From: a virus
IMG/VR virus record: IMGVR_UViG_3300012927_000004
Strand: one strand, 5' to 3'
DNA: 64,000 nucleotides
This document shows, piece by piece, positions 7,647 to 63,240 of this stretch. The notes below the pieces were generated by a model that made no database searches, had not been told where the DNA came from, and saw only the letters and a program-made list of their open reading frames with translations. Made by a program: the position numbers and the translations under genes. The first letter of the stretch is position 1. Every line of letters starts with the position of its first letter.

Positions 7647-8366
7647 TTAGGCTCGTAAGATCTTTTCGATCTTTCCTGTTTTAGTTGAAGGATTTACAAT
7701 CGCTGAAACGATACCGTCGTGAAAATAAGCACCGGACAATTTACTGACCGTATTATTCACGGCGTATAAGACAGACTTCAACGAAATGAATTCGATCTTA
7801 TCCAAACCATAGTCATTAATATCTTTAGCAGTTTGTCTCAAAGACTTTGAACGCTCTTCAATCCGACGGGCGATAACGCCTACTAAGAACTCAATAGTCT
7901 GTGGAACTTTAGCGATTTTAGATCCAGCATGTTTATCGGCTGTATCAAAAATTGAACATAAGTCATCGACATTTGCCCACCAAGGAACCTTTCCTTTCAT
8001 AATAAATTCGTCTAATACGTTAAACGTCAACGTATCTTGACGTATCAATTTTAATGAACGAATAATAGGCGTATCGATATCAAAATGGAATTCATAATAC
8101 GATTCTTCTTCAATAGTCGCCATCGTTGTACGAGAAGGAGTTAAATCCATCAGTGAACAAACGTTCATTACAGTATAAACATCATCTTCGAAGAGTATTG
8201 GAAAGAATCCATAAACAGACGTGACATCTGTAATACTCCCCAGTCCAACATTCATCCATCGCTCAGGAACCTGTATACGGCAAGGTACTCGTGTGAGTAC
8301 CTTGCCGTCTTCTAATACAGTTAAACGATCGAGACAAATATTTTTGTCACGTTTGAATAAGGTCAT
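7647..8366 (-). CDS. hypothetical protein (239 aa)
   Basis: Long ORF. Its start shares 1 nt with the upstream gene's stop, and 2 nt separate it from the protease gene downstream. Confidence 0.6.
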   Translation of the reverse strand: MTLFKRDKNICLDRLTVLEDGKVLTRVPCRIQVPERWMNVGLGSITDVTSVYGFFPILFEDDVYTVMNVCSLMDLTPSRTTMATIEEESYYEFHFDIDTPIIRSLKLIRQDTLTFNVLDEFIMKGKVPWWANVDDLCSIFDTADKHAGSKIAKVPQTIEFLVGVIARRIEERSKSLRQTAKDINDYGLDKIEFISLKSVLYAVNNTVSKLSGAYFHDGIVSAIVNPSTKTGKIEKILRA

Positions 8367-9841
8367 TAAATCCTGACGATTTGAATCTGACCTTGGAGAT
8401 AATCGACGATATAATTGATCGTCGCAATGAACGCTGCTTCTTCGGGTGAGGTATTTTCACTCAATGTTCCGATCTCCTGCATGTCGTTCACAAACTTTTC
8501 GGCATAAGTAAAGTGATATTTATAACCAGCGATCAGTTTCTTTGCCATTGTCTGTACATCACAAAGTGTTTCTTTCCTCAGACCGTGGAGATATTTCTCC
8601 ACTTCTTTCTTGATATTATCATGACAAGAAGGATTCCTCAATAGGAACGATTGTTCCAGATCTTCTTGATAATCAGCTGTCATATATCGGCAGAACAGAT
8701 CATAATAGAACTTACGCAGACTTGCTGCTTTAGTGTATTCAAGACTTTCAAGATAAACCTGAACGTACTTCTTCCAGGTGTCTTGAAGCACGATAGCGTT
8801 CTTATCGATCTCACTAACCGAATAGAAACGCTTGGAACCCACCAGGATACCCATGATGATATCAGCATTACCACCAGCGGTTAACCAACGATCATACACT
8901 TCTGACGAAACTGTGATTTTCTTGTGGAACGTATCCACATAAGTAACCAGGATATCAGATTTGTTATTGTTACTGATACGACCCAGAGTATTAATTAACA
9001 CTGTTCCTGCATAAAACATATGTTCGAACAAACGATTCTTCACTGAAGCAGTTGATTCGTTCGTGATCATATCGGGCAGATGATTCGTGTAATAGTTAGC
9101 AATCAGAAAATAAGCTAACGACACATTAAGTCGAACATACATATCAGGAGAATTCATATCGTCTTGACTGACGAAAGAACCTTTATAGTTCCTATTCACG
9201 TTAGAGCTAGCAAAGAAACTATACCAGACAGAATCCAGATATTTGAACTGGTTGGTAACATACCAACTCGCTACTAAATTATCCAAAGCCGTATTGCTGG
9301 TCGAAGCGACTGTCAAGAAATCATCCGGAATACCCATGTCGAAATTTAACGTTGAGGTATTCGGATTAACTGTTTTCTTGTATTTGAATGTTTCCAGAAG
9401 ACTTAAGAAACCAGCTTCCTGAACAATATCGGGGATGCTAGTACGACAGATCTCGAGTTCAGAAGCTGCATTGGATCCACCCAGCATTTCCATGAAAGCT
9501 TGGGAATCTTTAGCAAATTCTATTGTACGAGGGACTACCGTGTTATGAATATAACTGATGTGAGCTTTGATACACCCCGTCAATTTCTCCACACTGGAGT
9601 CGAATGATGCCCCCCATATCACACCAAAATCACCAGCGCTATGGAATTCCAACATATCGCTGTAGAAGTTGAGGTTGTCATCATAATCGATAGGAGCTGG
9701 CACCGGTCGATCATTTTCAATCGGTGTCGAAAGTCCGACGAGTTCAGAAAGCACACTCGACATAGAAGGCTGAAGTAGGATACCCTTCTTCGCCAGATCT
9801 TCTGCAAATGCAGCAGCAGTATTAAACGAACGTCCAAGCAT
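8366..9841 (-). CDS. hypothetical protein (491 aa)
   Basis: Long ORF in the same operon-like run. No motif recognised. Confidence 0.6.
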   Translation of the reverse strand: MLGRSFNTAAAFAEDLAKKGILLQPSMSSVLSELVGLSTPIENDRPVPAPIDYDDNLNFYSDMLEFHSAGDFGVIWGASFDSSVEKLTGCIKAHISYIHNTVVPRTIEFAKDSQAFMEMLGGSNAASELEICRTSIPDIVQEAGFLSLLETFKYKKTVNPNTSTLNFDMGIPDDFLTVASTSNTALDNLVASWYVTNQFKYLDSVWYSFFASSNVNRNYKGSFVSQDDMNSPDMYVRLNVSLAYFLIANYYTNHLPDMITNESTASVKNRLFEHMFYAGTVLINTLGRISNNNKSDILVTYVDTFHKKITVSSEVYDRWLTAGGNADIIMGILVGSKRFYSVSEIDKNAIVLQDTWKKYVQVYLESLEYTKAASLRKFYYDLFCRYMTADYQEDLEQSFLLRNPSCHDNIKKEVEKYLHGLRKETLCDVQTMAKKLIAGYKYHFTYAEKFVNDMQEIGTLSENTSPEEAAFIATINYIVDYLQGQIQIVRI

Positions 9842-10063: not shown

Positions 10064-11179
10064 TTATTCGTTATACAACTTGACCGCATTCTGAGCAAAC
10101 AATTTCAGAAGCGTAATGGTAGTACCCAGGATATAAGGAGACATCACATTACGAGCTGCGATGGACCGACATCCAAAAACCGCATCGATTTCTTCACCTG
10201 CTTCTGTATAAAGTTTGTAATCCATGACTTCTGAGTTAACACTTTTCATTTGATTCGCGAAAACCACCTTATCAGCAATTCCCATATTCATGTTAACAGT
10301 GATATAGAAACGAATCTCGGCTTTATTCAAACCAAGCGGCGTTCCTTCAACACGATAATCGTCAGTCACTTCCCCAGTAAACTTGGGTTTATGGGTGCTT
10401 TTAGCTTGTTCAGAAATGAATTGATCGCTAAGATCAGCTAATTTACGGAGAGAAGAACTCATCTGTTCCTTATCACCGTGATAGAAGACCTCTATACGAT
10501 CCACAATTCCGAAATAATTGGAACGAGGAGATTGCTTAGAAAGACCTTTCAGTGTCTCAATAGCGTTCTCACCAAACGTTCCGATTTGAGATGTTATTTC
10601 ATCTTCGACACTCATTAAAATGTCTTGTGGTTTAACAGTTTGAGAAGGTTTTACAACATGATGAATATTCTGTTCGAATGTCACCACAAAACTTCTCAAG
10701 TAAGTAACCCTAGTCTCAAGCTTCTCTGATAACTTTTTCGAAATAGAAGAAGCATCTTCATGAGTTTGTTTGGTTTCCCATAATACAGTTTTAGCTGTCA
10801 ATGAGTTTTTCATCACAAGTTGACCAGGATTCCAAACATCATATTCGAAATAAGAAATGTTATAAGCAATGGGATCTCCCTTCTTAAAGGACTCCCCTTC
10901 CTTAACAGATGCTTCGATATCAAACGGAAAGATCGATCCTTCAGATCGACCAAACTGACGTCCTAATTCAACACCGATCATTTTACCACTTTTGTATTGA
11001 ACAACAACACCTTTATCAGTTACCTTAGTAACAACACCATCCTCTTTTGCACAGTAAGCAAAAAGAGGATTTGTCCGTTGTGCAATAATCGATTCAAATC
11101 CAGTTCTTACAAAAGGTGGGTGATATCCTTTTGCTGGAATGCCGTGACTATTCTGAATTGAGATGAAATTGATACGATT
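10064..11179 (-). CDS. multisubunit RNAP beta-like subunit, exon 2 (371 codons)
   Basis: 'ISIQNSHGIPAKGYHPPFVRTGFESI..GVVTKVTDKGVVVQY' aligns with E. coli beta '[32 protein letters not shown]'. 'ADKVVFANQMKSVNSEV..IDAVFGCRSIAARNVMSPYILG' aligns with '[36 protein letters not shown]'. The frame stays open upstream of the annotated Met back to a TGA at about 11192..11194. Confidence 0.8.
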   Translation of the reverse strand, partial: NRINFISIQNSHGIPAKGYHPPFVRTGFESIIAQRTNPLFAYCAKEDGVVTKVTDKGVVVQYKSGKMIGVELGRQFGRSEGSIFPFDIEASVKEGESFKKGDPIAYNISYFEYDVWNPGQLVMKNSLTAKTVLWETKQTHEDASSISKKLSEKLETRVTYLRSFVVTFEQNIHHVVKPSQTVKPQDILMSVEDEITSQIGTFGENAIETLKGLSKQSPRSNYFGIVDRIEVFYHGDKEQMSSSLRKLADLSDQFISEQAKSTHKPKFTGEVTDDYRVEGTPLGLNKAEIRFYITVNMNMGIADKVVFANQMKSVNSEVMDYKLYTEAGEEIDAVFGCRSIAARNVMSPYILGTTITLLKLFAQNAVKLYNE

Positions 11180-11687
11180 CATCGAGAATATTCAAACAAA
11201 CTCGCTAGGTCTGTTTCGCGCCATTACGCGCAGCTTTAGGTCTCCCTAAAGTCTAGGTCATATCTTCACCCACAGCTTAACCTGGTTGGGTGCTTCCCAT
11301 TTCGGATCGCTTGATCCTACAGGCTGACAAAGCCCTGACCGTCGAACCTTCTCCATATCCGAAGACGTAGGAGCTTGGCTGCTGATTGTCTCTACTCCGG
11401 GCTTTTCCAACCCTGGCTTTGTCTTTCGACTCGCAGTGGTGACCGGATTTGACGAGATGTTCCAGCAATTAAAGAAGATTCAACTGTAGATTTCTCTACA
11501 GTCGGACTATAGTACGAATAGATGTATCCATCGGGATAAACACCTTTGTTATTGTTGGTTCTAAACCCCATGTTAAGTGTGGTTTTCTTGATATTGAATC
11601 AAGAAAAAATCAACAATAACAATTTACGTACGTTCAATCGTCGTGCATTGCACCCGCTGCTAAAAGAACAGCCGAACAGTGTCGATT
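11180..11687 (-). ncRNA. ORF-less group I-like self-splicing intron in the RNAP beta gene (boundaries predicted, +/- a few nt)
   Basis: - It splits the conserved beta 'ANR......MQRQAVP' block.
- R-like 'GGUUCGACGGUCAGG' (11334..11348) and S-like 'GAAGAUAUGACCUAGAC' (11251..11267) can form P7 (GGUCA/UGACC).
- P3 candidate CAAAGCC (11415..11421) / GGCUUUG (11328..11334) directly abuts P7.
- Several hairpins are GNRA-capped, for example 11483..11502 and 11232..11253.
- GC content is much higher than the surroundings.
- With these boundaries the 5' exon ends in U and the intron ends in G. Confidence 0.65.
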
Positions 11688-14600
11688 AGCATTTTGGACT
11701 TCCGCATCATGATTCTTAAGACCACGATGATTACGAAGATGAGGATCTGAAGAGGTATAGATATTAACACCCACATCAGAACTATCTACAGTTCCTTCAG
11801 AGATTACACCGACATCTTGAACATGAAAAGATCGAGAAGCTTTATTCATTCCATCAGAAGAACGACCGCCTTCTCCAACATAGGTTACACTTTCATCATT
11901 CTTAATGTCTTGAATCGGATTGATTTCAGGAACTAACATTACAGTTGGATCACTGTTGATAGCTGACCAGACCTTATAAGGACTGATATCAATCTTACTT
12001 CGACCTGCTATGTTCTTACTCCGGAACTGACGAATAGCTGCCGTCATTTCTTTATAGACAGCACCAGAGAAACGTTCATATCCTCGAATACGTGTATAGG
12101 AACCATCGTATTCTTTTGGATGTTGATATGACATTAACATTTCAGTAGCTTTCAAAAGTAATCCATCGAAAGTCACTGGTTCATTCATGTCTTTTAATAT
12201 TTCTTCAGTGATAGGATCGATGAAATAATCAAACAACATATCAATCTCACGAAGATAGATTGCACCTAGACCTTTACTGGTTAAGAGATTCATGTAGATA
12301 TCTTGATGTTCAAAATCCTTAACACTTGCCGATTTCGTCATCTTGGCATAATCTAAGAATCCAGCCAGTATCATTGTTGCAAAGTGATTTTTACGAGAGA
12401 AGATATAAACACCGTCATTAAACGGAATGGGATATTCATCTGGCGTAAGATTCAATCGTTTCTTTGGTTCAACAAAACGTGGTTTGACTTCCAATAAAGC
12501 TAGAAGTTTAGACCACCCCAATCGGTAACCTAAAATCACACCTACTGGCACATTTTTGCGAAAGATTGCTAATTCACTAAAACGAATAGGTGAGTTATGA
12601 GGATCCAAATTAAGAACTTTAAAGATATCCCCAAAAAGTTCTAATTTTCCTTCTTTTAAAATATAAAAGTCATTATTCATATCAACCCAAAGAAGTCCGT
12701 TATCCGGAGCATGTCCACACCACCGCATACCTTCTCTAGGAGATGACATCCTAATATTCTTACCGTTATCGCACATCAAAGAAAAGCCTCCTGCTTTAAA
12801 GGAGACGAAGCTTGTTGAAAGTAAACCGAAGATATAAGGTATCTTGGCATAAGAATCAAAGGTATTACCAGGTACTACATCTTTGATCCATTCACTACCT
12901 TCAAAAGAAGCCTTATTGATTTGCTTTAAGATCCAATCAGAAGTGCTATTTGCAATTTTACTTTCCGAAGAAACAAATGCTTTTCCATAGTAGCTATTCA
13001 GAGAGACTTCGTTCGGACTGATCTTACGAATCGGTAAGTCTGCACGATTCTTTCTAAGCATATAACGGTTACCCGCTACCTTAAACGAACCGTCATGTTC
13101 AACGACTGGAAGTTTAAACCAAATTGAAGAAGCAGTACCATTGATAGGTTTCAATTGTAGATTATGAATTTCTACATTTCCCATCACGGTATGTTCTTGA
13201 GTGATCTCATGTTTTTGAATAATGACACCACCCTTCTGAAGACCACCCACCATTTTAATAACATCATTCTTCATGTGTTCATCGATGTAATCACGAGTAT
13301 AACTCTGAAGTGTACTTTGAGTCATGCTCTTATCAATGATAGTTGGATGATCGGCTAACTGTGTCTCACTTGAATGAATGATCAGTTGTTCTGGATGGAT
13401 TTCAGTCTTTTGAGCTGTTAAATTACCACTACCATAAGGGTCTAACATCTTAATATAAGCATCGGCATCTTGAAGCGCTTTCTTATAAGAAGCAGCATTC
13501 AATGTTCCATCTTCTAATGCTTCGACCATTTTCTTCTTTAAGGCATTATTAGGTATTAATGCTGTATGAACTTCTTCATGAATATCTTCGTGGTTATAAA
13601 CTGTCGTAGGATGAACTTCTACAACTTCGTTATCTTTTAATGAAATACCACGCTTATGAAGATCAAAACGATTCTTTTGTTCCAGAATCTCCATATCGTC
13701 ATTCAGATTCTGGATGATATTATCGCTAAGTTCATCGATTGCATCGATAGATTTCAAAGGTTCTTGAAACTTCTTTTCTATAGGGGGGGTTATATTCTTT
13801 TGTTGAAAACTTTCGATCGGACCTTCGTCGATGTAATCGTGTTCATCATTATGATCTTCAATCTCTTCAACAGTTTCTTCTGTCTGAGGAATAGTTTCAG
13901 CTGCATCTTCAGGAATCGCAGAAGAAATAACCAATAGGTATTTAAGTAAAGCTCTAACCATGATCTTACGATCACGTTGTAAAGATACTTTAATCGTAGA
14001 GACGTTTTCATCACCTTTGATCCAACTATAAAAGTACGAAAGGTTCAAAGTGCTACAACGTCCATCTGCTAACATGAAAACCATGTTAATCTTCTTCAGT
14101 GCTTCAATAGGAATCAAATTGAAAACACTACGATCTCTCAACTCGTCTTTGATAAAATTAGACAAATGAAGAATCAAACGTTTCTCATGAGTATTAAATA
14201 AACGAGCTAACGTCATACCTTCTTTATCAGAATAATTCAACAACATGTTATAACTGGGGATATTAATGATTGGATCCAAAAGAACAAAATGTTGACGATT
14301 AGATTTTAATGCCAATGCACCAATATGTGACCAGAATGTTTTCTGATAACTCTCCCATTTCTGATATTCGGAAATGGGAGTATGAACATATCGATATGTG
14401 AATTTCAATGGATTGTAATCCACCACAATCATCGTACGTTCATCAATTTGTATGTCAGATGCTCGAGGAATATAACGAAACAGATTATGTTTCTTGATGA
14501 ATGGTAGAATAAAACGTTGTGGAACAAACGGAAGTGTTCTTGGATGCCCTTCCATTAAGTCACTGTGATAAACCAGTTCTAAAGGAAGACGTTTGCTATA

Positions 14601-14771
14601 TCCTTGAAAATAAGGTTTTGATGCATCTGGAAACATTTCATCATCTTGAGTGAAATGATGCAACATTGAATTACGAGGAAATCCTTTAAAGATTTGAAGA
14701 CGTGGAGATATCAGTTCGTTAAAACGACGTACTCCTGTCTCACGGTAAAATTGCGTATAAAGTTGTAACAT
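11688..14771 (-). CDS. multisubunit RNAP beta-like subunit, exon 1 (1028 codons; ORF track reads through to a stop at 11634 inside the intron)
   Basis: 'YVGEGGRSSDGMNKASRSFHVQDVGVISEGTVDSSDVGVNIYTSS' aligns with E. coli beta '[43 protein letters not shown]'. 'HDAEVQNANR' aligns with 'HDDANR'. Confidence 0.8.
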
Positions 14772-29914: not shown

Positions 29915-29949
29915 TCGTATCGTCCCGTTTTAAACGTAGGTGTTCTCAA

Positions 29950-29982
29950 ATAGAGTATGTAGGGTTATTATTTTTTACGAAT
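29950..29982 (-). promoter_or_regulatory. promoter-like motif, family member f (plus strand 'atagagtatgtagggttattatttttt')
   Basis: Shares the 'AGAGTAT(A/G)T' core with five other sites. It lies about 39 nt upstream of the 29914 start codon. Confidence 0.45.
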
Positions 29983-30504: not shown

Positions 30505-30531
30505 TTCAACCTCCATCGTACCTGCTCAAAG

Positions 30532-30560
30532 AAAGTATGTATGATTGAAAATATCTGAAA
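30532..30560 (-). promoter_or_regulatory. promoter-like motif, family member b (plus strand 'gaaagtatgtatgattgaaaat')
   Basis: Near-identical to the 40094 copy ('aaagtatatgtgattgaaat'). It lies in a divergent intergenic region about 30 nt upstream of the minus-strand start. Confidence 0.45.
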
Positions 30561-43291: not shown

Positions 43292-43344
43292 CTGAACTTC
43301 TCCTTGTAACTTGGAAGGGATTAAATCCTACTAGGACTCAAATA

Positions 43345-43375
43345 AGAGTATATATGATTATAATTTTTTAAGAAA
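43345..43375 (-). promoter_or_regulatory. promoter-like motif, family member c (plus strand 'aagagtatatatgattataattttttaagaa')
   Basis: Same 27-nt frame as the 40915 and 63206 copies. It lies about 55 nt upstream of the helicase start. Confidence 0.5.
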
Positions 43376-50854: not shown

Positions 50855-51700
50855 TTAAACTTGAACAGTCAAGAGAGGTTCGGAGTTCCCTACATCGAAT
50901 GTATATCGAATACCTTGACTCCAATCTGCAGATGGAAAGTTGGTCGACAAGTACGACATAACTTGTGTTGCGATACTTTCCGTATAGGTTGTTGAAATAC
51001 CCCCGGAGGTAACAGTAACTACTCTATCAACACCAGAGCACAAAGCAATCTCACTAATCACTGCATGGTTCTCATCACCATAGATGAGACTTGAAGCATT
51101 CAGAAGTTCCAGAACATCATTTGCGTCCAGAATGAATGGTAGCGATCCTGTTGCGCTGATATAGTTACCATTAGTAGTAACCGTTGTGCCAGATGAGAGT
51201 AGTGTTGGTGTAGGAGAAAGATTACTAGATCCTGGTGTAAAATCTGATATACTAACCGAACCATCGCTAGCTACATCACGATTCTGAAGCGCCATAGCGA
51301 TCGTTGAAAGATCCAAAATTTTACCGTAATAGGCAAAGTAATTCACACTACCTACCGTAATCAATTTTCGAAGTCGATAATTTTCTTGGATGGTAGAACT
51401 GATATCGGAGCTGATAGGTCGAACGATAAAAGGAAGTTCTTGAAAAAGCCCAGTGTCAGTTGGTTTGTGGTTATACGAAGTCGTATAAGTGAATCCATCA
51501 GCACCTGTTCCGACAGATAAACCTCCGATCCCTACCATCGCATATTTCAATTTCGGAATCTCTCCAGAATTGAGTGTTGCAGCAGCTTGGATATTCAACT
51601 TCTGATTGAGCGTACTATAAGGAAGTACCGTATAAGGTAAGTCCATTAGCATACACGCCTGAAGTAATGATTTCATAATGGTTGGAACGTTTCTTTCCAA
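50855..51700 (-). CDS. hypothetical structural-module protein (281 aa), TTG start
   Basis: TTG start with 'agaggg' 8 nt upstream. Beta-rich S/T/G composition. Confidence 0.55.
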   Translation of the reverse strand: MERNVPTIMKSLLQACMLMDLPYTVLPYSTLNQKLNIQAAATLNSGEIPKLKYAMVGIGGLSVGTGADGFTYTTSYNHKPTDTGLFQELPFIVRPISSDISSTIQENYRLRKLITVGSVNYFAYYGKILDLSTIAMALQNRDVASDGSVSISDFTPGSSNLSPTPTLLSSGTTVTTNGNYISATGSLPFILDANDVLELLNASSLIYGDENHAVISEIALCSGVDRVVTVTSGGISTTYTESIATQVMSYLSTNFPSADWSQGIRYTFDVGNSEPLLTVQV

Positions 51701-51717
51701 GACACAATCCCTCTAAT

Positions 51718-53097
51718 TTATATAACAGTTATGTAACTATATCCATCGATATGTTGAACACGTTGACAGTATCGATAAGAAGGTTGATAAATCTTTTCAT
51801 TTATTTTAAAAACAAACTTACCAGAAGCTCGGCATACTACACGACTGACCTTTGACCAAAGTGGTGGGTTAATACCAGATTTGATAGAAGATCTTACACG
51901 AACAAGATCACCTGTTCTGAATCCAAAGAAATATTTCTGTCTAGGTATATAAGCTTTAATAAAACCATATTGGTCAGGTATTGCTCTTTGATATCTACCT
52001 CTACCATTACATTTTATATGTAATGTTTTATGAATCCATCCATGTATTTTAACTATATAACCAATACAAATAGCATCTAGAGCATGAGTTTTGGGTATTT
52101 TAAAACGTAATCTATTAAATTTCGTTAACCCACCACTTCCAGTTTCAATTAATAAACCAGTTTTAATAAGTGCTAATCTAAGTTCATTTCGTATAGCGTT
52201 CATAACCGCCATATCTCGAAGAGGTTTTAATATTTGTTTCTTAAATTTATCTATCTTAATTTGATTAAAATTTAAGAACTCTTGATAACTTTTATTACCT
52301 TTAGTTTGATTACACTCTTTGCAAGCAAGAACTAAATTAATCAAACGATTAGATCCACCTCTACTACGAGGAATTACGTGATCTATTTGAAAACCTTTAG
52401 AACACCCATTTCCGCAGTAAGCACATTTATGATCGAATTTAAGTAATAAATATTCACGAAGTTCGTATCCTAATAATGTACCTTGTTGATACATTATGCC
52501 TTCTAAATGAGTATTTTGAGCCAGTTGTGTATCGAACTTAACATCCTCATAAACAATTTTAGTAATTGGAAACCATCGTCTAAGTCGATTAACCCAAGAC
52601 ATCGTGCTATCAATACGATGTTGGATAGAAGGAGGTAACCATCCTTGTGGTCTAGTACGATTTAAGAAACGAGCTTCACGATAACGTGTTTTACGCGAAC
52701 GCCTGTTACGGCGATGCATAGCTCGATTATAAAGTTTTAATTTAATAACACGGCCACGATGTTCTAATTCCATTAAACGAATAACTGTAATTTCGTTTGG
52801 TCTATCTTCACGCACGATAGCTAATCCGGTTGTTTTACTACCAGGATCAATTTTAATTTGTGTAGGTTGTAATTTACAATTGATTTGTGTTCGATCAAGT
52901 AATTGAATAATGAACGGTTCTCTACGAATTACCTTCGCACGACCTTTATCTAAAAGTTTCCTTGCACTTTTGCCACTACATGGCATTAGTGGTTTACCAT
53001 CACTTCCAATTACACTAACAAAAGTAATTGGTTTAACTTTTACTCGACCTGATTTTGAGATAACGATACGTCTTCCATTATTCTGTTTCTTTTCCAT
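51718..53097 (-). CDS. iscB: IscB, RNA-guided RuvC/HNH nuclease of the OMEGA family (459 aa from ATG 53097; ORF track extends to GTG 53175)
   Basis: These motifs appear in order: PLMP 'GKPLMPCSGKSARKLL'; RuvC-I 'IKIDPGSKTTGLAIV'; bridge helix 'HRRNRRSRKTRYREARFLNR' plus 'GWLPPS'; RuvC-II 'IVYEDVKFD'; HNH 'CAYCG..IDHVIPRSRGGSNRLINLVLACKECNQTKGN' (52297..52425); RuvC-III 'KTHALDAICIG'; and a C-terminal beta-rich ~100 aa. Confidence 0.88.
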   Translation of the reverse strand: MEKKQNNGRRIVISKSGRVKVKPITFVSVIGSDGKPLMPCSGKSARKLLDKGRAKVIRREPFIIQLLDRTQINCKLQPTQIKIDPGSKTTGLAIVREDRPNEITVIRLMELEHRGRVIKLKLYNRAMHRRNRRSRKTRYREARFLNRTRPQGWLPPSIQHRIDSTMSWVNRLRRWFPITKIVYEDVKFDTQLAQNTHLEGIMYQQGTLLGYELREYLLLKFDHKCAYCGNGCSKGFQIDHVIPRSRGGSNRLINLVLACKECNQTKGNKSYQEFLNFNQIKIDKFKKQILKPLRDMAVMNAIRNELRLALIKTGLLIETGSGGLTKFNRLRFKIPKTHALDAICIGYIVKIHGWIHKTLHIKCNGRGRYQRAIPDQYGFIKAYIPRQKYFFGFRTGDLVRVRSSIKSGINPPLWSKVSRVVCRASGKFVFKINEKIYQPSYRYCQRVQHIDGYSYITVI

Positions 53098-53358
53098 CAA
53101 AAATTCCAATAATCCCGTAAGGGACTTGTTAGTCACTCTCGCCAATGTTATCTTAAGTTGACTACTACTTATCACACTACTCCTATCTCACAGAGTTGTT
53201 TAATGATAAGACCATAGAGCTTGGAACTGAGTGGGCATTCCAAGATATGCATCAAAATAACGTAGTATTTTCATACTGAGGCTGATTCATCTAGTCTTAC
53301 AACTCACGTATTAAAGTGGAGTGGATGAACTTTTTTCCATTTTTAATGTTTTCCGAGG
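53098..53358 (-). ncRNA. candidate omega RNA (guide + scaffold) upstream of / overlapping the iscB 5' end
   Basis: A block of about 260 nt lies between the upstream gene's stop and the preferred iscB ATG, with no convincing coding function. It contains local stems, for example 53220..53244 (cttggaa/ttccaag) and 53113..53124 (tccc/ggga). IscB loci are known to encode their omega RNA at exactly this position. No covariance model was run. Confidence 0.45.
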
Positions 53359-55428
53359 TTAGCTAAGGTATTCGACAGTGACATCTTGCATAATCACACC
53401 AACAGGTAAACGAGCTGTGTTGGTGGTATAACTATCAGGAGTCCCATCACCTTGATTAATAGTTCCGTAGAAGATATTGGGTTCTAGTCGTGCTAGTGTA
53501 AGATCTGACTCACTGATGATTTCGATATACTGAATATTGTAACTGGTCAATGAACGCATAATTTTGATCATTGCTTGAGTAACATCTTTCTGATCAGACG
53601 AAGTATTAACTGAAATGCCTGTTCCAGCCTGATACAGATTGGTGATCAATTGAGGAAGATATTGACCAACAACCTCATACGAATCTAAGTTGTTCAAGTT
53701 TAAAAACTCACTTGCAGTAGTAGAAGAAGTTTCCAATTCCACTACAGTGTCTGCAAAAAGGTTGTATGCCATGTTCTTGACGTACCCTTTTGCAATTGGA
53801 TCTTGATGACTAGCGATCAAAGTATTTTGATTGATATAATTCAGATAAACATTTAGAATCAATGTATAAAATAGACTCGTGGTATTTGTAATAGTTAGTG
53901 GAACAAATCCAGCCATTAAAATTTGAGCATCAGTCAATAACAAATCACGATACGATTGATCAACTAAATCAATCAGAGTATTTGCTGAAATCAATGAACT
54001 TGTATTAACATGTTGTTGTGCTAAGAAGTTAGGAATTAAAGTAACGGGTTCGGGTGTTGTGATTGTGTTATATTTCACAAGTTGATTTAAGTCACTAGAA
54101 GGAATTCCTACAATTAAATCCTGGGCCATTCCTTGTGAGGTATAAGACAAAGATAAGTAATAGAGATACTCAAACGCAGCTTTGGCTGTTATCGTCTGCT
54201 GTGTACCTGTGCGAGGATTCTGGAATGTTACACTAGCAGTATAAAGACCTACTGCGGCCATATATCCCCAATGTGTAAGAATAAAATCATTAAAACTTAA
54301 TGTTGTTACATTGACCGTATCTTGAGTCTGTGTAATAACATCTTTAGTAATGACACGCGCTTGATTTTGATGTGAGATATCAAAGAGAACGTCGTTCAAT
54401 TTTGCATCGTAATAATCTGTGGTACCATATAGAACTGTCTTTTCTTTGTTAAACAGGTCTTGTGGTGTTAAAGTCTCAGTAGAAGGAACAATCTGAACAA
54501 CATTTAGTGGTTCAGATTCGATAATAGTATTTGGGGTATAATCGCTTTCGATTTGATTTGTTTGACGAACTGTATATCCAAACATCTGAATATTACGAGG
54601 ACTAAGGATATTAGTCATTAATTCTGAGAACTGACTATCATATCCCATATAACGTACTAAACGAGGTAAATTGCGATAAAGATACATCGCTTGTTTTTGC
54701 GTAAGGTAAGGATAATATTGATCCAGTCCCATATATCCTCGTAAGAACATTCTCACATGGAAAGAATGAGCTTCGTAAGTATTGCGACAAGCATCTCGAA
54801 GATTAAAAAGTTTTGGAAGAATAAAAAGAGACAAATTGGCATAAAATGCCATGAGATAATAACCATCTGTTAAGGAATAAGCATCAACATAAACACGTGC
54901 GGTATAGCGTTTAATTGCATCTTCCAAATTCTTAATTAAAGAATATTCGTTGGATTCAACCAAAGAAGTTTGATAACGAAGGATAGTTCCATCTTCTGCA
55001 TTAATGGCTGTGTTAATATTACAGGGCATTAGAATACCCATAATAACATCTTCTTGATTAGGATATTGGTTAACTAATGTCTGATAGTAACGTGTACCAA
55101 AAATATATTCAGCAGCGGTATTAGGACTTATTGCTAAATTTTCCTTGCTAAAAGTGATTGGTAGTAGAGTATCGAGTGACGTGATGGTCATCTGTGTATC
55201 GGTCGAATGATACTCACCTGAAAGATTAAGATAATATTTCCAGGTGGTTGGATCCGATAGGTTAACTGCAGACGTACCATATTCATTGATCAATGTTGTG
55301 TTTTGCGCATCAGCAGATTTACCTGATTTGATTCCTAATGTCCGAACCAGATTTAGATTTGCCTGGTAATAGTTTTGAATGAGCGGATCGTTGAGCGGAT
55401 CCGCTTCTCCCGTTATTGTATCCTTCAT
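53359..55428 (-). CDS. hypothetical structural-module protein (689 aa)
   Basis: Long ORF. No motif recognised. Confidence 0.6.
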   Translation of the reverse strand: MKDTITGEADPLNDPLIQNYYQANLNLVRTLGIKSGKSADAQNTTLINEYGTSAVNLSDPTTWKYYLNLSGEYHSTDTQMTITSLDTLLPITFSKENLAISPNTAAEYIFGTRYYQTLVNQYPNQEDVIMGILMPCNINTAINAEDGTILRYQTSLVESNEYSLIKNLEDAIKRYTARVYVDAYSLTDGYYLMAFYANLSLFILPKLFNLRDACRNTYEAHSFHVRMFLRGYMGLDQYYPYLTQKQAMYLYRNLPRLVRYMGYDSQFSELMTNILSPRNIQMFGYTVRQTNQIESDYTPNTIIESEPLNVVQIVPSTETLTPQDLFNKEKTVLYGTTDYYDAKLNDVLFDISHQNQARVITKDVITQTQDTVNVTTLSFNDFILTHWGYMAAVGLYTASVTFQNPRTGTQQTITAKAAFEYLYYLSLSYTSQGMAQDLIVGIPSSDLNQLVKYNTITTPEPVTLIPNFLAQQHVNTSSLISANTLIDLVDQSYRDLLLTDAQILMAGFVPLTITNTTSLFYTLILNVYLNYINQNTLIASHQDPIAKGYVKNMAYNLFADTVVELETSSTTASEFLNLNNLDSYEVVGQYLPQLITNLYQAGTGISVNTSSDQKDVTQAMIKIMRSLTSYNIQYIEIISESDLTLARLEPNIFYGTINQGDGTPDSYTTNTARLPVGVIMQDVTVEYLS

Positions 55429-63205: not shown

Positions 63206-63240
63206 CAACTAGAGTATATGTTACTCTAGCGAATTAAGAA
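63206..63240 (-). promoter_or_regulatory. promoter-like motif, family member e (plus strand 'caactagagtatatgttactctagcgaattaagaa')
   Basis: 22 nt are identical to the 40915 copy. It shares the 27-nt frame GAGTATAT..TTAAGAA. It lies about 28 nt upstream of GTG 63184. Confidence 0.55.

Follow-up and report, generated by a model that had tools for sequence, protein, structure and literature searches.

The subject of this analysis is an iscB gene, together with the omegaRNA gene that precedes it, in a 64,000-nt viral sequence (IMG/VR record IMGVR_UViG_3300012927_000004), hereafter the window. An original prediction, made from the sequence alone, had assigned this DNA to a phiKZ-like jumbo phage that is transcribed by RNA polymerases of its own, and the genes of the window bear this out, as multisubunit RNA-polymerase beta-type subunits, an Rpb1 domain, the phiKZ internal head protein (phiKZ_IP) and Peptidase_S80 are all encoded. 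Two assemblies contain the identical sequence, one of them as part of a metagenome contig of 244,788 bp, and the IscB protein is additionally present in a JGI source. The block that holds the element (51701..53358, 1,658 nt) extends from the TAA stop (53361-53359) of a 689-aa virion-module gene (53359..55428, minus strand, phrog_3222) to the TTG start (51700) of a 281-aa virion gene (50855..51700, minus strand) that matches Pfam DUF7208 with 289 bits. The element is flanked by virion proteins, namely phrog_3222, phrog_3004 and DUF7208.

The minus-strand open reading frame (ORF) at 51718..53175 encodes 485 aa when counted from a GTG. Because this GTG falls within the omegaRNA, we took the ATG at 53097 as the realistic start, which gives an iscB gene of 459 aa (51718..53097, minus strand); in relatives, iscB likewise starts directly after the last hairpin of the omegaRNA. 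The translation contains all of the IscB hallmark motifs that had been predicted, in the predicted order: KPLMPC, IKIDPGSKTTG, the bridge helix RRNRRSRKTRYREARF, GWLPPS, VYEDVKFD, the HNH motif C..YC...DHVIPRSRGG...NL..AC..CN..KGN and KTHALDA. The corresponding domains are PLMP, RuvC-I (D84), the bridge helix, RuvC-II (E184), HNH (C225/C228, D239-H240, N254, C259/C262 and N263), RuvC-III (H338 and D341) and the C-terminal beta domain. In profile searches, the ORF matched Pfam RRXRR with 226 bits, in addition to an HNH match, and the NCBIfam equivalog guided_IscB (NF040563) with 401 bits against a cut-off of 175 (E 3e-120). A sequence search of the PDB returned TbaIscB (8e-41), OgeuIscB (1e-30) and IsrB (6e-20). 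We also built an AlphaFold (AF2) model using 61 homologues as input, with a predicted local distance difference test score (pLDDT) of 85 and a predicted template modelling score (pTM) of 0.80. When this model was compared with the PDB using Foldseek, the top ten matches were all IscB or IsrB-omegaRNA-DNA complexes (best E 5.7e-24), the best being 8csz, 9liq, 9k30 and 7xht (IscB, E 6e-24 to 4e-18). Based on the sequence motifs and the model, the N-terminal PLMP, the arginine-rich bridge helix, the C-terminal beta domain that interacts with the target-adjacent motif (TAM) and the overall IscB fold are present. The ORF is thereby confirmed as a bona fide IscB in which the RuvC D/E/H/D set and the HNH domain are intact, and the alternative of an ordinary HNH endonuclease fails.

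The catalytic residues are well preserved. D84, E184, H338, D341, C225, C228, C262, H240, N254 and N263 do not vary among the 61 homologues, and at least 90% of these also have C259. All 60 family-invariant residues are retained, and the window IscB deviates at only 6 of the 121 positions with at least 95% conservation, four of these deviations being I/L/V swaps. Considering that 0 to 9 such deviations are seen within the family, the window IscB looks like an active nuclease and not a decayed one. The best non-self protein match is 55% identical, and a single-protein scan of IMG/VR returned no close IscB relatives. Residues 1-25 (53023-53097, minus strand) form a basic N-terminal extension of about 25 aa, MEKKQNNGRRIVISKSGRVKVKPIT, which was modelled at a low pLDDT of 46-64. 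This extension is absent from most IscB homologues, and that of one homologue (P0002), at about 13 aa, is both shorter and unrelated.

The block upstream of iscB, which had been described as non-coding, does exist, but it is rather a full-length HEARO/omegaRNA gene. The scaffold (53128..53330, minus strand) covers positions 1-211 of the Rfam model HEARO (RF02033) with 100.3 bits against a gathering threshold of 83 (E 9e-21), and lies directly 5' of iscB on the same strand. Beyond the Rfam model, a predicted hairpin (53111..53126, minus strand), AGTCCCTTACGGGATT, aligns to GGCCCGTAAGGGCC in relatives and is conserved at the 3' end of the omegaRNA. Across 14 related omegaRNAs, compensatory changes were found at 31 of the 40 predicted pairs; the P1 stem, for example, is GTTCATC:GATGAAT in the window and GTCACCC:GGGTGAC in relatives. 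HEARO occupies the same position at the five closest metagenomic IscB loci, at 19 of 20 sampled IMG/VR loci and in one deposited 484-kb phage, and it is already listed in Silviavirus annotations (PMC13346280). When six omegaRNA loci were compared, conservation began exactly at 53330, and the flanks upstream of it were unrelated and locus-specific. In the canonical layout, the right end of the transposon bounds the omegaRNA and the adjoining flank serves as the guide (Meers et al., PMC10055086). The boundary between right end and omegaRNA in the window element is canonical in this sense.

To the left of this boundary lies the flank that the element entered. In all relatives, homologues of the 689-aa gene stand directly upstream of the DUF7208 gene. 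Six of these loci are empty sites (L006-L010 and Bacillus phage AgentSmith), at which the two homologues are 15-18 nt apart. The metagenomic empty sites represent the three nearest lineages of relatives that were available, L006-L008, L009 and L010, with DUF7208 identities of 65%, 57% and 58%, respectively. Since the flanking genes are this close in six relatives, the window element is an insertion. The alignment of relatives, which had been proposed as a check, thus revealed presence and absence of the element, and the opposite picture, in which every relative carries the gene with no structured RNA beside it, does not agree with six empty sites and a HEARO upstream of iscB. In a blastn search against GenBank phages, the only match was one of 104 nt to AgentSmith. 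Elsewhere in its genome, AgentSmith, the closest deposited relative, carries a 375-aa RRXRR protein, gp73 (L001, 12007-13134), whose match to the IscB model is confined to the N-terminal half (123 bits against 175). It has no HEARO at threshold and is IsrB-like or degenerate.

The original prediction further held that the insertion exactly fills the gap between two structural genes. While the gap is indeed filled, its 28 leftmost nt (53331-53358) come from the ancestral phage, and the element sits not strictly between the genes but within the 281-aa gene in its ancestral form, 10 nt from the start. That start has been rebuilt. On the minus strand, this flank reads TAA-CCTCGGAAAACATTAAAA-ATGGAAAAAA, followed by the scaffold GTTCATCC. 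By comparison of the junctions, CCTCGGAAAACATTAAAA (53341..53358, minus strand) is the ancestral intergenic spacer, and its 18 nt fall into the length class of the spacers at empty sites. ATGGAAAAAA (53331..53340, minus strand) is a relic of the DUF7208 start, ATG GAA AAA A, which encodes M-E-K plus 1 nt, and the orthologous DNA of L006 is ATGGAAAAGA. We assigned these 28 nt to the ancestral phage because the flank matches the gene start of L006 and because MEK opens all nine of the closest DUF7208 relatives, seven of which read MEKNVPT. From this comparison, the ancestral empty allele would have been TAA-CCTCGGAAAACATTAAAA-ATGGAAAAAAACGTTCC. The relic start codon also opens a nine-codon mini-ORF, MEKSSSTPL* (53340-53311, minus strand), which shares sequence with the guide and with the omegaRNA's first stem, and its translation could disturb omegaRNA folding.

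On the other side of the element, a junction of 17 nt (51701..51717, minus strand) separates iscB from the present DUF7208 gene. The junction carries a strong replacement ribosome-binding site (RBS), AGAGGGA, at 51714-51708, and the rebuilt gene start that follows reads TTG GAA AGA AAC GTT, encoding MERNVPT. DUF7208 relatives are 274-287 aa long and cover 99% of the 281-aa reading. We considered whether the two flanks hold a target-site duplication, but the flank repeat TGGAAA(-/G)AAA(-/C)GTTC taken by itself was not significant by shuffling (p=0.14), and we relied on the comparison with the orthologous site in its place.

Characterised IscBs served as the analogy for a guide length of 16 nt. 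With this length, the predicted guide, TTAAAAATGGAAAAAA (53331..53346, minus strand), spans positions -6 to +10 of the ancestral DUF7208 start. It matches the orthologous site of L006, TCAAAAATGGAAAAGA, at 14 of 16 positions, and this site is the only one with 14 or more matches on both strands of that 12.8-kb locus. Within the window, there was no second perfect match, and the six matches with up to three mismatches are at chance level (3.9 expected). The rebuilt DUF7208 start, TGTGTCTTGGAAAGAA, matches the guide at only 9 of 16 positions.

The origin of the guide bears on whether the element could have been domesticated as a weapon or regulator against host DNA or an unrelated competitor, with its guide re-targeted away from the insertion site. 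Phages are known to domesticate TnpB-type proteins, as in the case of the TldR regulators (10.1101/2023.11.30.569447), and a pattern of guide plus ATRA matched 33 AT-rich viral contigs in IMG/VR, several of them with a longer palindromic motif in common. However, the guide is the ancestral flank itself and is homologous to the start of the phage's own DUF7208 gene. The 33 matches needed the added ATRA suffix, are of low complexity and lie on unrelated contigs that encode no homologues of the flanking genes, so we judged them low-complexity or motif coincidences. Furthermore, the nuclease residues are intact, which does not fit a dead regulator. Such re-targeting is therefore very improbable. 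The palindrome met by chance through this pattern is an observation in its own right, as about a dozen unrelated AT-rich viral contigs (among L096-L128, e.g. L096 12551-12590) carry the extended form TTAAAAATGGAAAAAAATGAC.TTTTTT....AATATATAA.

The left end of the element differs from those of its relatives. In relatives, the 76-113 nt downstream of iscB hold a hairpin (CCTGAAGG-type, e.g. CCTCGGCCTGAAGGCCGAGG) and then GGTTTYC, and the element ends directly before ATGA. The exception is L011, where the element extends 40 nt after iscB and has no hairpin. We found no left-end hairpin, inverted repeat or ATGA in the 3' end of iscB or the 17-nt junction of the window, and the bases following the junction are ACGTTC, whereas the Ralstonia phage, L012, L014 and L005 elements all stop before ATGA. 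Faint likeness of GGATTGTGTCTTGG to the left-end tip of L005, GGATTCTTGAGG, was seen by eye only, and we do not claim it as a hidden left end. Of the features of a complete ISC transposon, the window element thus has the right end but neither the left-end hairpin nor the ATGA motif, and its left end has evidently been lost. Without a left end, TnpA could no longer excise this copy, and without excision, the donor-restoring role of IscB would have no substrate here.

Several other properties of the relatives were observed alongside. Their left ends (L012 7394, L014 7402 and also L005 at about 9383) stop exactly before an ATGA that contains the called ATG of the downstream gene, and relatives' IscB elements tend to sit between the RBS and the start codon of a gene. 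L005 and L014 are parts of one phage-like contig (ENA ERZ15185861 NODE_17, 203,315 bp) with two IscB and HEARO copies. The two copies share 81% DNA identity over a stretch that opens inside the omegaRNA and closes about 34 nt short of the stop. The same contig carries a TnpB (OrfB_IS605) gene, and L012 likewise has both IscB and TnpB. The L005 element contains an 11-nt perfect direct repeat, CAAGATCTCAT, at about 7740-7750 in the guide flank and about 9357-9367 at the left end (shuffle p=0.007), which may be the remnant of an earlier or tandem element. Group I introns are found 0.5-2.6 kb upstream of IscB in L011 (4854-5206), L012 (3354-3653 and 3803-4097) and L014 (4436-4775). The window also has a group I intron (RF00028, 60.4 bits against a gathering threshold of 50; 11234-11523, minus strand), which splits an RNA-polymerase beta-type subunit gene; the flanking ORFs, 11634-14771 and 10064-11182, match positions 3-1050 and 1051-1422 of phrog_3148, and the 451-nt gap that holds the intron contains no endonuclease ORF. 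An IStron arrangement was considered from the introns near iscB in some relatives and was dropped, as the window intron is 40 kb away from the element.

Ralstonia phages provide the complete counterpart. IscB of Adzire, Simangalove and Claudette, deposited as 'HNH endonuclease', shares 46.5% amino acid identity with the window IscB over 88% and has a HEARO upstream. In Simangalove, the element is a discrete 1,728-bp unit, GTCAACC...GCAGACTG, arranged as guide flank, element and ATGAG, with a 104-nt left end that contains the hairpin CCTCGGCCTGAAGGCCGAGG. Bakoly, which is 97-99% identical to Simangalove, has the uninterrupted site cccggacggtgt|atgagaaaaaag, while Claudette carries a 98.8% identical unit at a different |atgagc site in an unrelated backbone. 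Elements of this clade are thus mobile in phages, which counts in favour of the homing or competition nuclease proposed below. The identity shared among the Ralstonia copies begins at nucleotide 1 of the HEARO. Insertion at N|ATGA without duplication has been described for ISC elements (PMC4810608), and the Ralstonia phages match this. The Ralstonia element is complete, intergenic and without duplication; the window copy, in contrast, has no left end and interrupts a gene start.

These comparisons allow the simplest transposon model to be weighed, in which the locus is an ordinary selfish, non-autonomous ISC transposon that is still mobile through TnpA supplied in trans, with IscB acting only restoratively and without any role between phages. 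The canonical boundary of right end and omegaRNA, the flank-derived guide and the canonical, duplication-free N|ATGA insertions of the Ralstonia phage relatives all agree with this model, and a missing tnpA is itself ordinary, as about 98.5% of iscB genes have none nearby (PMC10055086). It is at odds with a next start codon only 17 nt from iscB, compared with the 76-113 nt of relatives (40 nt without a hairpin in L011), and with the lack of a left-end hairpin or ATGA-like motif, since without a left end there is no excision and restorative homing has no substrate. As originally predicted, there is also no transposase in the window: a Pfam scan of its 46 other ORFs (E<=1e-3) revealed no Y1 TnpA, and neither TnpB nor another HNH protein. 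We consider a still-mobile selfish transposon unlikely.

The composition of the gene speaks to how long the element has resided in this phage. The window iscB has a GC content of 33% and a GC content at third codon positions (GC3) of 16%, while the iscB genes of its nearest relatives have 52-61% GC. Its codon usage correlates with that of the phage genes (relative synonymous codon usage, r=0.90), although the GC3 of phage genes is higher, at 25-33%. Considering this host-like GC content and codon usage, the gene is not a fresh arrival from the lineages of its relatives, and it has probably resided for long in this AT-rich genome. The operon is co-oriented with the element and tightly packed, with gaps of 2-26 nt, and neither a terminator nor a sigma70-like promoter was found at the borders of the element. 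We looked for a promoter of the omegaRNA's own and rejected the idea, as there was no sigma70-like site and the recurrent intergenic motif of the window does not occur there. Read-through from the late structural operon would be the simplest source of the omegaRNA and the iscB mRNA. The recurrent motif, ATACTYTN(1-2)TTTGAG, stands upstream of three genes (29945-29958, 30525-30538 and 43337-43351, all minus strand), with three matches against 0.02 expected and a looser copy upstream of the gene ending at 63208, and is a candidate phage promoter by its sequence.

The same features allow for an inactive, stranded relic that lost its left end, became immobile, has no cleavable natural target and is tolerated in a large genome. 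The missing left end would be expected of such a relic, every relative examined has a higher HEARO score, the RBS of iscB is weak, and the low GC3 of iscB relative to the phage genes could be mutational drift. On the other hand, an ORF of 459 codons has remained unbroken in 33%-GC DNA, the 60 family-invariant residues are kept, the few differences at near-invariant positions are mostly I/L/V swaps, and compensatory changes maintain the P1 stem of the omegaRNA. In addition, the two independent assemblies are identical, and the protein occurs in the JGI source as well. Decay to an inactive relic is accordingly quite unlikely.

IscB in phages is not in itself rare. The original prediction regarded a stand-alone IscB in a phage as unusual, and this was overstated: solo IscB is the norm, and IscB is carried by 177 or more IMG/VR loci as well as by several deposited phages. 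A two-pattern scan of IMG/VR viral contigs confirmed 177 IscB-encoding stretches on contigs of up to 185 kb, and 89 GenBank phage records match the window IscB, including those of Ralstonia, Microcoleus, Nodularia and Clostridium phages and a 484-kb uncultured phage with a HEARO. More generally, tnpA lies near only about 1.5% of iscB genes (Meers et al., PMC10055086). Our literature search returned no published analysis of IscB in jumbo phages and no demonstrated phage-to-phage IscB homing.

Compared with the characterised OgeuIscB, TbaIscB and GstIscB and with the ISC elements (Kapitonov 2016; Meers 2023), the window element has the same domain order and catalytic residues, a HEARO upstream on the same strand, a guide from the right-end flank and no tnpA in cis (PMC10055086; PMC4810608). 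It differs from the solved IscBs in its structure-based identity of at most 22% and in its basic N-terminal extension. Unlike ISC elements, it has no left-end hairpin or ATGA-type motif, lies 10 nt inside an essential-looking virion gene with a rebuilt start, and resides in a jumbo phage that encodes RNA polymerases of its own. IscB is the ancestor of Cas9, and Type II CRISPR-Cas9 and Cas9d likewise have an HNH domain within RuvC and a bridge helix, with weak profile matches over the HNH domain. However, Cas9 profiles were far below cut-off on the window IscB (Cas9d, 68.7 against 375; TIGR01865, 39.1 against 100), and it has no REC lobe. A CRISPR association was also considered and rejected, as the window contains no repeat array.

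The arrangement also resembles the intronless homing of the T4 Seg/Mob nucleases and gp210 of PhiPA3, where a nuclease gene lies between conserved genes and is absent in relatives (PMC13565253; PMC11620839). Phage homing endonucleases target the cognate sequence of nuclease-less relatives, and the carrier is shielded by differences in its own target; the same is predicted for the window element. In contrast with these endonucleases, recognition here would rely on a 16-nt RNA guide and not on the protein, and the insertion itself splits the target. Competition between nucleus-forming jumbo phages by a protein-guided HNH homing endonuclease has been shown (PMC11620839), and 'transposon non-restorative homing' into co-infecting phages exists as a concept (PMC13565253).

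Taken together, we favour, with a probability of roughly 60%, a stranded IscB element of the IS200/IS605 type (ISC/OMEGA) that acts as an RNA-guided homing or competition nuclease. From the identity and intactness of IscB, its omegaRNA, the insertion polymorphism, the origin of the guide and the missing left end, we infer expression, TAM recognition, cleavage and homing in the following manner. The omegaRNA and iscB would be transcribed by read-through from the co-oriented late structural operon. On co-infection with close relatives devoid of the element, the IscB-omegaRNA complex would recognise their uninterrupted DUF7208 start (TTAAAAATGGAAAAAA with an adjacent motif) and cut it. Repair by recombination from the IscB-bearing genome would then copy the element in, as in intronless-type homing, and/or the cut would handicap the competitor. 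The carrier would be immune, as its own guide match runs into the scaffold and not into the adjacent motif, and its rebuilt start has diverged (9/16). The DUF7208 gene survives through the new RBS and the TTG start (MERNVPT) directly after iscB.

Several findings weigh against a homing or competition nuclease. No near-identical phage without the element was found among GenBank phages or in metagenome and viral contigs, so no perfect target is documented, and exact 24-mers from the end of the 689-aa gene and its flank yielded no other alleles of the window phage in metagenome and viral contigs. L006, the only empty-site relative that matches the guide well, has two mismatches, one of them beside the TAM side. 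The bases after the target are ACGTAC or ACGTTC in relatives and in the rebuilt copy, unlike the ATGA of relatives' elements, and IscB may or may not be able to cut such sites. The omegaRNA itself is less than ideal: it scores only 100 bits, where the family spans 100-165 and all relatives examined score higher, its 5' hairpins hold several non-canonical pairs, and the z-score of its minimum free energy is only -1. The RBS of iscB is weak, and the rebuilt DUF7208 start could derive either from a short target duplication or from a remodelled element end. Finally, if a phage nucleus forms, IscB would need import to reach phage DNA.

A more specific form of this nuclease reading can be put forward, tentatively and with considerable doubt. 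The element may have become, in phiKZ-like jumbo phages, a free-standing nuclease for RNA-guided homing or marker exclusion, which lost its left end and has its guide fixed on the start of the rivals' essential DUF7208 virion gene, while the carrier would be protected by its recoded start (new RBS, TTG and AAA->AGA).

As a catalogue item, the locus is ordinary, since IscB with HEARO is common in viral contigs and goes unrecognised in deposited phage genomes. What is new here is the informative anatomy of the window element, in which the guide equals a gene start, that start has been rebuilt and the left end has been lost. The biology of IscB and omegaRNA is known from bacterial transposons; once TnpA has excised such a transposon, the nuclease cuts the donor site again. 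Because the window copy is non-excisable yet intact, and because its guide spells the conserved gene start of relatives, it is a concrete natural candidate for the phage 'non-restorative homing' that has so far been theoretical in reviews. RNA-guided homing in phages becomes directly testable, as the guide, the candidate target and the self-protecting recoding are all defined. The locus also raises the question of how an RNA-guided nuclease made in the cytoplasm reaches DNA in a phage that possibly shields its genome. If the proposal is true, the element would do with an RNA guide what the T4 Seg/Mob nucleases do in intronless homing and what PhiPA3 gp210 does in phage competition, and it might act inside a shared phage nucleus.

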